Of a stretch of 64,000 nt of DNA, positions 31,277 through 33,556 are shown in pieces. A program made the translations under genes and the position numbers. The notes beneath the pieces are model-generated. The model saw only the letters and a list, made by a program, of their open reading frames with translations, made no database searches and had not been told where the DNA came from. Numbering within the stretch: position 1 is the first letter of the stretch; each line of letters starts with the position of its first letter. Source of the stretch: Escherichia coli (GTDB lineage Bacteria > Pseudomonadota > Gammaproteobacteria > Enterobacterales > Enterobacteriaceae); the NCBI RefSeq assembly GCF_024298765.1, contig NZ_CP101212.1; one strand, written 5' to 3'.

Positions 31277-31534
31277 TTACGAAGTCGCTCTGCGTTTCAG
31301 CTCTGATTCAATCAGTTTTTCAAGCATCTGCGCCTGAGTAATACCTTCCTCATCCGCCAGTTCACTCAGCCTGTCTTTTAACCGGGCCTGAATAACCGCA
31401 TGAAAAGCCTTATGAGTGTTGCTTCTGCGAGCCAGAGAAGCTCTTTGCCTCTCTCTGGCCGGAACAGGGTTACCTTTCCGGTATGTACGCTTGGTGCCTG
31501 ATGAGGAAGTCACTGCATTTTCTGTCTGCGACAT
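31277..31534 (-). CDS. repA2: RepA2 / CopB transcriptional repressor
   Basis: 85 aa [11 protein letters not shown]...; 286 bp upstream of repA', the usual copB-to-repA spacing. Confidence 0.85.
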
Positions 31535-31817: not shown

Positions 31818-32024
31818 TTACTTCCGTGCTTCGTAGGCCAGAGTTACCTGCACCACTGTATTTCCTCTGTGAATATTCAGCTCACATAACCGTTCCCTGA
31901 ATATCAGTGAAAAACACAACACCGTGGCGCACACGGCGAGCAACCCGATAAGGGCATATTTCGTCATAAACTTTGACCTCTCAGCAAAGAAGAGGCTACA
32001 ATCAGTAGTGTTAAGGTACTTCAT
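31818..32024 (-). CDS. srnB: Hok/Gef-family type I toxin, SrnB-like
   Basis: 68 aa MKYLNTTDCSLFFAERSKFMTKYALIGLLAVCATVLCFSLIFRERLCELNIHRGNTVVQVTLAYEARK; single TM with the hok-family C-terminal motif. Confidence 0.8.
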   Translation of the reverse strand: MKYLNTTDCSLFFAERSKFMTKYALIGLLAVCATVLCFSLIFRERLCELNIHRGNTVVQVTLAYEARK

Positions 32025-32483
32025 GCAGACCTCACGAGTTAATGGATTAACGAGTGGGGTCTTCGCATTTCTGGTACCTGCGTCTTGCCTGAACCAGAAA
32101 GGCTCAAACACCCGCCGCGATAATACCACATTCCCTGTTGCTGACTATTACCCCCATTTGCCTGTTTTTGTTACAAAAACGCCGGGAGCGGGGGAAAACT
32201 TACTTTTTCCCGTTTCCGGGGGGGACAACTGAGCATTGCGAACGCGTCAGCTACGATGTTCCGGTGATTGCTGATCAGCCCCTGTTGTATTCATAAACTA
32301 ATTAACATTCATTCTGTCTGGTGCATAAATCTGCCCGTGAACATCTGCAGACAATACCGGCCATGAAAAGATAAATAATACCAGTGGAATATATTTCCTC
32401 ATGTTATTCTCCATATCAGATAAATGGCACCTGTATTTCAGCCCCCCTGAATATCGCAGCACACATTGAATAAGACCTTATTT

Positions 32484-32499
32484 TGTGAAATTAATCACA
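32484..32499. promoter_or_regulatory. Perfect CRP consensus site TGTGA-N6-TCACA
   Basis: tgtgaaattaatcaca; both half-sites match exactly, in an AT-rich promoter-like region with TATAAA downstream. Confidence 0.5.
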
Positions 32500-32606
32500 A
32501 AATATAAAATCGCGACTTAATACGGAAAAAACTCTGTGCTACTCAGAACTGGCCGGTCATACTGCCCGACCGGATATTAAAAAAAGCAAATCTCATAAAC
32601 TCCTTT

Positions 32607-32647
32607 CAGCCTTCTGACTCCTGGAGTAATGAAGGCTGCTTTTTTCG
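32607..32647 (+). terminator. Plus-strand hairpin plus U-tract
   Basis: cagccttc ... gaaggctg stem with a 16 nt loop followed by CTTTTTTC. Confidence 0.35.
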
Positions 32648-32860
32648 TTACACCCTTCCCCGGCAGCGCCGGTGGCAGTGTTCAGCCCTTTTCCGGGCAA
32701 ACTGTTGCCAGTCTGTCCGGGGAGCTATGCAGGCAGCCCGTCGCCATGCTTCTGCCGCTTCCATCCAGCGTCCACTGACCTCCAGAATAACGGCCCGCCC
32801 GCCGGCACGCTGGTAACGCCAGACCTGACCGTTCCGTGAACTGTTTCTGAATCCATTCAT
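32648..32860 (-). CDS. Hypothetical small protein (70 aa)
   Basis: ORF only; no recognisable motifs. Confidence 0.3.
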   Translation of the reverse strand: MNGFRNSSRNGQVWRYQRAGGRAVILEVSGRWMEAAEAWRRAACIAPRTDWQQFARKRAEHCHRRCRGRV

Positions 32861-32967
32861 TTTTCTGCTCCTCCCTTTTAGTCGTCAGTATTATTGTGGT
32901 AAATAATTCAGTGGACTGGCTTCCTTTCGGGTACGGAAGTTATTTCCTTTTAAGCCTTATTGTTTCA

Positions 32968-32997
32968 GCCTCCCCGGTTTCCGGGGAGGCTTTTTTT
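32968..32997 (+). terminator. Hairpin gcctccccgg-ttt-ccggggaggc plus T-run, abutting the finO stop
   Basis: Perfect 10 bp GC-rich stem followed by TTTTTTT on the plus strand; on the minus strand it follows the finO stop with an A-tract before it. Confidence 0.45.
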
Positions 32998-33556
32998 ATT
33001 TCCCATCAAGCACGGCCTGAAGTTCTGCCTTTGTCCGGTTCTGGCGGCGAATTTTCTCCAAACGCCCTGCCGCATACGCTTCCTCCTCCTGAGAAATATG
33101 CTCCGTCACATACCCTTCCGTGTCATACCGGCAGGCACCGGCTTTCATGGCACACAGATAGCTTTCTGAACGGGTGATGGCCTTCAGCGCCCGGCGCAGT
33201 TTTTTATGCGAGAGCGGGATATTCCGCTGCGCCACGTCTTCCAGTAACACGTCCCGGATACCGCAGGCCAGAAGCCGGGGCGTGTTACCGTCAAACAATC
33301 CCGGCCACCAAGGTTTCAGAGTGTTCACCGCCTCATCCAGCGAGGGCAGCGTCAGATAAATGGACAGCGCCTGTCTGGCCTGTGCTTTCTTCGCCGCCAG
33401 CTCTGCTTCCCGGGCAGCCTTCTCCGCCAGTTTCTGCTTTTTCACCTTCCATTTTGGTGGCGTGGTGACATTGATGATGGTTTTCCGGCTCCGGGTCGGT
33501 GTTTCCCCTTCCGTTTTCCGTTTCAGTGTCAGTACCGGTCGTTTCTGCTCTGTCAT
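32996..33556 (-). CDS. finO: Fertility inhibition protein FinO
   Basis: 186 aa, basic N-terminus, matches F-like FinO; uninterrupted. Confidence 0.92.

Follow-up and report, generated by a model that had tools for sequence, protein, structure and literature searches.

Organization of the locus

The window analyzed here, a 64,000-nucleotide stretch of Escherichia coli DNA, belongs to an IncFII/F-like resistance plasmid. The region of interest contains, in order, repA (29646-30518), copA, a hok/srnB-type toxin gene (31818-32129), a nuclease stub, the gene for an ANR-family regulator of 70 amino acids (32648-32860) and finO (32996-33556), with copB/repA2 at 31277-31534. The protein-coding genes in this series are on the minus strand, as is a lactonase/hydrolase gene in the same window. 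Rfam models for CopA, sok, AS-traI, AS-traG and AS-pc02 matched in the window. The ANR gene, which went unmentioned in the first-pass annotation of this DNA, is annotated by PGAP in identical plasmids and matched NCBIfam model NF033650 with 33.5 bits (cut-off 32). Plasmids identical to the window include pSA186_2 (NZ_CP022731).

The short interval between the nuclease stub and the ANR gene carries a small-RNA unit on the plus strand, convergent with the ANR gene. Of 5426 complete E. coli genomes, 3275 contain the 651 bp that surround this locus; the copies are almost always plasmid-borne, and most have 90-95% identity. The module is common in clinical isolates, being carried by a large share of the F-like plasmids of E. 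coli, Shigella, Klebsiella and Salmonella; in PLSDB, roughly 4000 plasmids have it.

A conserved and structured plus-strand RNA

The extent of the unit was delimited from alignments, RNAalifold, pair counts and a covariance model. It covers about 130 nt (32515-32647, the conserved unit being about 32517-32647) and consists of a 5' block ACUUAAUAC, a block YUGUGNUAMU, a first hairpin, an A-rich linker with AAAUCUCAU, and a terminator. Hairpin 1 pairs CCGGUC (32553-32558) with GACCGG (32568-32573) across a 9-nt loop (-10.0 kcal/mol). The intrinsic terminator (32607-32647, -15.6 kcal/mol, z = -3.1) has an 8-bp stem, CAGCCUUC/GAAGGCUG, followed by U6. In the DNA, its arms are CAGCCTTC (32607-32614) and GAAGGCTG (32631-32638), with 5 G-C pairs, and C-T6-C then follows to 32647. 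A simple terminator scan missed this stem because its loop is longer than 8 nt. The minimum free energy of the whole unit is -34.1 kcal/mol (z = -3.18).

The structure was assessed on an alignment of 12 sequences (A7). RNAalifold independently predicted hairpin 1 and the terminator helix, exactly as the two hairpins had been drawn in the first-pass annotation from the window alone. In the pair counts, 98.8% of cells were paired and two pairs had double compensatory changes. The covariation score was reached in none of 500 shuffles, and sliding the partners abolished pairing. Hairpin 1 was paired in 100% of cells; one of its pairs changed from C-G to U-A in 4 of the 12 sequences, and one U·G change was also present. 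One terminator pair goes from U-A through U·G to C-G when p5505-2 and pRHB01-C23_2 are compared, and L009 has a U·G at another pair. Outside the helices, primary sequence was conserved in ACUUAAUAC, YUGUGNUAMU and AAAUCUCAUGCAUUAUU, which are candidate interaction surfaces.

The alignment also identifies the strand. Three one-sided changes read as U·G on the plus strand and as A·C on the minus strand, indicating a plus-strand RNA. At least 5 T residues directly follow the stem on the plus strand in all 12 sequences; read on the minus strand, it leads into AAAGGAG or AATAATG, with no U-run. Taken together, the U·G changes and the plus-only T-run indicate a plus-strand transcript that ends in an intrinsic terminator. 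The transcript of roughly 130 nt suggested earlier is thus the best reading of the locus: the module is conserved, its helices covary, and it overlaps a family described in the literature as expressed, Rfam AS-pc02.

Conservation of the unit does not follow that of its neighbors. The 245-bp spacer between the ANR and nuclease genes was 97% identical in four plasmids, where the wider 651-bp query, which takes in the flanking genes, was only 89-92% identical. More diverged F-like lineages were compared through pSTEC719_3, pABW_A19b, pMB3176_2, p5505-2/TO124, pRHB01-C23_2 and pWS0115A_186. In these, homology starts at a palindrome (about 32477) and in several of them stops just past the T-run. 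The left neighbor of the module varies between a nuclease, a PIN, a YadA-like and an NYN protein, and the right neighbor between ANR, a finO-like ORF and other sequence. Conservation thus follows a module (about 32477-32647) whose limits are set by neither flanking gene. A covariance model built from the unit found a single copy in the window (32515-32648, 151.6 bits) and detected no paralogues, either there or among the group-3 loci described below.

Possible targets were sought with RNAduplex by comparing the small RNA with the window in 60-nt tiles throughout. The self-antisense match alone stood out; the others were long duplexes rich in loops and did not rise above background.

Predicted promoter and CRP-type palindrome

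Upstream of the unit, a promoter scan predicted a sigma-70 promoter at 32483-32510 (+), with the -35 hexamer TTGTGA (32483-32488), a 16-nt spacer and the -10 hexamer TAAAAT (32505-32510), giving 9 of 12 matches. The TATAAA singled out in the first-pass annotation is present at 32503-32508; TTGTGA-16-TAAAAT scored better in the scan. Transcription is predicted from this promoter to start at about 32515-32519. The same geometry was kept in the main lineage, in KS167 pla1 and in pMB3176_2. No scoreable promoter or -10 element was found in pSTEC719_3, pABW_A19b or pWS0115A_186, so that the start site is uncertain.

The palindrome TGTGA-AATTAA-TCACA (32484-32499) overlaps this promoter. Both of its half-sites, TGTGA (32484-32488) and TCACA (32495-32499), are exact in the sequence, as first reported, and give 10 of 10 bases of the CRP core. 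Flanking bases lengthen its arms to 9 bp (ATTTTGTGA/TCACAAAAT). These flanks are TTT/AAA, unlike those of the CRP consensus, which are AAA/TTT. A single exact 10-base core is present in the window, where chance predicts 0.10, and 10 of 100 shuffles contain one or more; by itself it is therefore mildly unusual, suggestive but not significant. With one mismatch or fewer, the core occurs at background level (3 sites against 2.48 expected). An IHF site was considered as another reading of the palindrome and set aside, the match to WATCARNNNNTTR being poor by eye.

Conservation of the site was measured as column identity in 10 lineage representatives anchored on it. Identity was 92% for each half-site, 60% for the 6-nt spacer, 70% for the upstream flank and 78% for the downstream flank. 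Indeed, pMB3176_2 has a perfect TGTGA/TCACA (10 of 10) despite a different spacer, CAATTT. Nine of the 10 core bases are kept in pSTEC719_3 (TGAGA), L031 (TGCGA), pABW_A19b (TATGA) and pWS0115A_186 (CGTGA), and eight in the p5505-2 lineage. The G lost from the TATGA of pABW_A19b is understood to be critical for a CRP site. The right half-site TCACA is perfect in every representative except the two of the p5505-2/pRHB01 lineage. Moreover, the gap between TCACA and the conserved ACTTAAT is constant at 15-16 nt while its sequence varies. A similar site recurs in the non-homologous spacer of the group-3 plasmids described below, which also speaks for a CRP-type site. The check across F-like plasmids proposed with the first description, which covered both the site and the minus-strand peptide, thus retained the CRP core as a bipartite motif; the peptide reading frame turned out to be part of a decayed nuclease gene (see below). 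This pattern is a reasonable phylogenetic footprint of a dimeric site, drawn from few independent lineages. Part of the conservation of the left half-site needs no CRP, since this half-site doubles as the -35 hexamer TTGTGA.

Two members of the p5505-2/pRHB01 lineage (L026 and L033; p5505-2 and pRHB01-C23_2) have another perfect palindrome, GAATTG-TGAT-CAATTC, overlapping a degraded CRP core (TGTGA..CGACA or CAACA). A different binding protein may act in that lineage.

The position of the palindrome bears on what a bound protein would do. It covers the -35 hexamer and the spacer of the predicted plus-strand promoter, with its center at about -25.5 from the predicted start. On the minus strand, the best extended -10 element (TGCGATATT, TGCAATATT) is conserved and lies between the palindrome and the nuclease ATG; relative to it, the palindrome center is at -48.5. 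Class I or class II activation by CRP was rejected for both strands, neither center being at a canonical position (-41.5, -61.5 etc.). With no canonical activating distance from any promoter found on either strand, catabolite control of the small RNA remains a hypothesis, if a plausible one. The overlap with the -35 hexamer and spacer suggests that, if the candidate site is functional, repression of the plus-strand RNA would be likelier than activation. We estimate the prospect that CRP binds the palindrome as close to even, falling a little short of it. A literature search found neither CRP ChIP data or experiments nor transcript ends for the small-RNA locus.

The same sequence could be read without CRP. 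The palindrome might simply combine the -35 hexamer TTGTGA with an AT-rich spacer, or be the operator of another dimeric protein, the small RNA being constitutive. TTGTGA is indeed the -35 of the only scoreable promoter, an exact core is expected 0.10 times per window, the palindrome is at no canonical position for CRP activation, and the p5505-2 lineage has swapped the core for another palindrome (GAATTG-N4-CAATTC). However, TCACA lies within a sigma-70 spacer, which is normally unconstrained, and yet it is perfect outside the p5505-2/pRHB01 lineage. In addition, the 6-nt spacer between the half-sites diverges, with pMB3176_2 keeping the 10 of 10 core around a different one. We regard this reading without CRP as a possibility of some weight, though a doubtful one.

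Relation to the Rfam family AS-pc02

The plus-strand RNA is already known, as Rfam AS-pc02 (RF02876, 'Antisense to pHK01_099'). The family matched the window at 32566-32751 (+) over its full length (model positions 1-185 of 185) with 181.9 bits and E = 5.7e-48, the gathering score being 40 bits. The match comprises the 3' half of the unit and a further 104 nt complementary to the ANR coding sequence. As cited in PMC9029176, Jiang et al. (2017, FEMS Microbiol Ecol 93:fix090) described AS-pc02 on the basis of pHK01 plasmid RNA-seq. RT-PCR on E. coli vesicle preparations has detected it as well (PMC12370729). A FinO RIP-seq paper reported FinP and RepX as the sole major ligands. We infer that pHK01_099 is the ANR-family gene of the window.

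The family and the unit share the locus, the strand, the convergent and antisense arrangement with an ANR-family gene, and F-like plasmids as carriers. They differ at both ends. The 5' end of AS-pc02 (32566) falls in the 3' arm of hairpin 1, about 50 nt downstream of the start of the unit, and its model runs 104 nt beyond the terminator at which the unit ends. Since the Rfam boundaries differ from those of the unit and extend past the terminator, termination is not complete. We read the unit of about 130 nt as the primary product and the catalogued AS-pc02 as its read-through and/or processed form.

It could instead be argued that the real transcript is AS-pc02 alone (32566-32751). It would then be purely a cis-antisense RNA against the ANR mRNA, arising by processing or from a different promoter, and the hairpin with the T-run would be structural and not a terminator. 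Besides the Rfam boundaries themselves, this would fit the fold of the terminator region in Rfam, where an alternative hairpin, GUAAUGAAGG/UUUUCGUUAC, takes up and so sequesters the U-run; by manual inspection it still pairs in p5505-2. However, this alternative has -7.9 kcal/mol against -15.6 kcal/mol, the terminator hairpin being twice as stable. Position 32566 is inside the 3' arm of a covarying hairpin, the 50 nt upstream of it are conserved, and no promoter was seen just upstream of it. The module also persists in lineages with no downstream ANR gene; there the Rfam model still obtains 47-55 bits from the 3' half that it shares with the unit. We therefore consider a transcript limited to AS-pc02 improbable. 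The survival of the unit without ANR means, moreover, that 'antisense to ANR' may not be its sole or primary role. Relative to the catalogued family, the present analysis gives better support for the extent of the RNA, shows it to be independent of ANR and adds a conserved, putative CRP-type operator. Redefinition from promoter to terminator, together with independence from ANR, would correct the present Rfam picture.

The ANR gene ends close to the small RNA, its stop codon (32648-32650) lying 2 nt from the U-run (32640-32645). On the ANR strand, A6 precedes the hairpin and there is no U-run after it. Transcription of ANR is therefore likely to continue toward the nuclease stub, and the resulting transcripts would be fully complementary to the small RNA.

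The minus-strand reading frame is a nuclease remnant

The minus-strand ORF of the first-pass annotation (32292-32402) does have an ATG at 32402, a GGAGA Shine-Dalgarno sequence and the peptide given for it, over 34 codons instead of the 33 first counted. In identical plasmids, PGAP annotates this ORF as a 'thermonuclease family protein', incomplete, missing its C-terminus, and a pseudogene. The intact counterpart, in pO45-1, is a SNase-family nuclease of 153 amino acids with domain PF00565. In pO45-1, p804533 and pSE74-1357 the order is finO, ANR, the nuclease gene (153 aa, PF00565), hha, and then DUF2726 or another gene.

The ORF of the window corresponds to the signal peptide at the N-terminus of the pO45-1 nuclease and to a short stretch from within this protein, and differs from it in having lost the SNase domain; no Pfam match was found in the 34-residue remnant. 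Against the intact gene, the window copy aligns as two pieces with about 197 bp missing between them, and this internal deletion joins residue ~23 to residue ~91 in frame. CAG has become TAG after MNVN, and the gene is truncated at its 3' side at about 32292, everything beyond being deleted, hha included. The internal deletion, the nonsense change and the truncation thus leave a dead nuclease gene reduced to its signal peptide and a small fragment, and the ORF is no longer a candidate for a regulated peptide. To the left of the stub, 32200-32293 matches p804533 sequence located beyond hha and a hypothetical gene. This match indicates that about 730 bp including hha were deleted in the lineage of the window, bringing hok/srnB beside the stub.

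The decay of the nuclease gene leaves room for another reading of the palindrome, in which it serves a divergent minus-strand promoter of the nuclease operon (with hha downstream) and is, since the gene is dead, a fossil in the window. The palindrome lies 82-97 nt upstream of the nuclease ATG with the conserved extended -10 element in between. The group-3 plasmids L028, L029 and L032, whose nuclease is 67-78% identical, carry upstream of it a non-homologous spacer with an invariant TGTGA-TTTATT-TCAAA (9 of 10 core bases), a site with one mismatch or fewer being expected about 0.01 times per 260 bp. On the other hand, a center at -48.5 is neither class I nor class II, and the palindrome stays with the RNA module where a PIN, YadA-like or NYN protein takes the place of the nuclease on the left. 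A scan of genome contigs found no CRP site upstream of more distant nuclease homologues (Morganella, Trabulsiella, Serratia, Citrobacter and others). This counts against a nuclease promoter at first sight, but these homologues are in unrelated gene contexts and are therefore uninformative either way. Overall, we give a divergent nuclease promoter little credence. Finally, a functional secreted or membrane micro-peptide of 34 codons under CRP control, to which the ATG, the GGAGA Shine-Dalgarno sequence and a signal-peptide-like N-terminus might point, is highly implausible given that the ORF is the N-terminus of the 153-aa nuclease followed by an in-frame deletion of ~200 bp, a nonsense codon and a 3' truncation, flagged as a pseudogene by PGAP and devoid of any Pfam domain.

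Proposed organization and comparison with known RNAs

The reading that we favor, with a confidence somewhat better than even, is that 32477-32647 is a self-contained plus-strand small-RNA gene with its own promoter, terminator and candidate CRP operator, next to a dead minus-strand ORF. This gene would be carried by F-like plasmids just beyond finO. Transcription would start near 32517 from the sigma-70 promoter TTGTGA-16-TAAAAT, giving an RNA with conserved single-stranded blocks at and close to the 5' terminus, a single short hairpin and an A-rich linker. The RNA would end at the intrinsic terminator (stem 32607-32638 and U6), directly next to the stop codon of ANR, the convergent gene. Read-through of this terminator would run antisense into ANR and, with the 3' half of the unit, make up Rfam AS-pc02. 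Bound to the palindrome, about 25 bp upstream of the predicted start, cAMP-CRP would occlude RNA polymerase, and the level of the RNA would fall in the absence of glucose. The minus-strand nuclease stub would play no part.

Such control would resemble that of Spot 42 (spf), a CRP-repressed E. coli small RNA; CyaR is a CRP-activated one. The likeness to both consists of a small RNA gene, an intrinsic terminator and a CRP-type site at the promoter, predicted in the present case. Repression is what would be expected from the placement of the palindrome of the window over the predicted core promoter. The window RNA differs from Spot 42 and CyaR in having no sequence or structural homology with them; a weak Spot_42 match occurs elsewhere (32921-32998), far below threshold.

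With CopA, FinP and Sok/SrnC, the window RNA shares a short, structured, plasmid-encoded form, an intrinsic terminator and an overlap with an opposite or convergent gene; CopA and sok occur nearby in the same window. Those RNAs overlap the 5' region or the translation start of their target, whereas the window RNA faces the 3' end of ANR. It overlaps the ANR coding sequence only upon read-through.

A broader reading, tentative and in our view rather unlikely, is that most F-like plasmids carry a catabolite-controlled, trans-acting small RNA whose extent (~32517-32647) and CRP operator have been overlooked because it was catalogued just as part of a loosely bounded antisense RNA. If this were true, the plasmid would sense the carbon status of its host by a second RNA route, in addition to the CRP control that has been reported for traJ. 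A real CRP-type site would mean that the small RNA ties plasmid behavior to the nutrient state of the host. Should the site prove non-functional, what remains is simply a known plasmid antisense RNA beside a decayed nuclease gene.

Sequence variants and neighboring features

Several other features were observed in and around the module. At 32584-32592, within an otherwise conserved linker, the lineage of the window has a specific 9-nt replacement, AAACTCCTT, where GCATT--AT is found elsewhere. The replacement creates a minus-strand AAGGAG-N4-ATG before a 17-codon ORF, MRFAFFNIRSGSMTGQF (32583 to 32530), and adds ACUCC, which is able to pair with GGAGU of the terminator loop. A type I toxin-antitoxin arrangement was considered and rejected: by manual translation, the minus-strand ORF from 32583 varies from 7 to 20 codons with no conserved frame, and its Shine-Dalgarno sequence is present only in the variant of the window. 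In TO124 plasmid 2 (L027, 1490-1511), the conserved block TATGTGTTACT inside the small RNA is duplicated as an 11-nt tandem repeat.

The group-3 spacer has the same layout as the module, with a conserved TGTGATTTATTTCAAA about 150 nt from a plus-orientation terminator, GCCCCGG-N7-CCGGGGC followed by T5. In L029, the 3' arm of this stem is lost.

A second small-RNA-like 3' end was seen in the spacer between finO and ANR (32915-33000, +). There, a CTTCC/GGAAG hairpin (32924-32939) is accompanied by a strong terminator, AGCCTCCCCGG-TTT-CCGGGGAGGCT followed by T7 (32967-33000), which ends on the finO stop codon. Rfam gave just weak, sub-threshold matches for this spacer (suhB, ncS54 and Spot_42). 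Distant from the small-RNA locus, at 356-477 on the minus strand, the Hfq-binding RNA STnc490 of Rfam matched with 90.8 bits.
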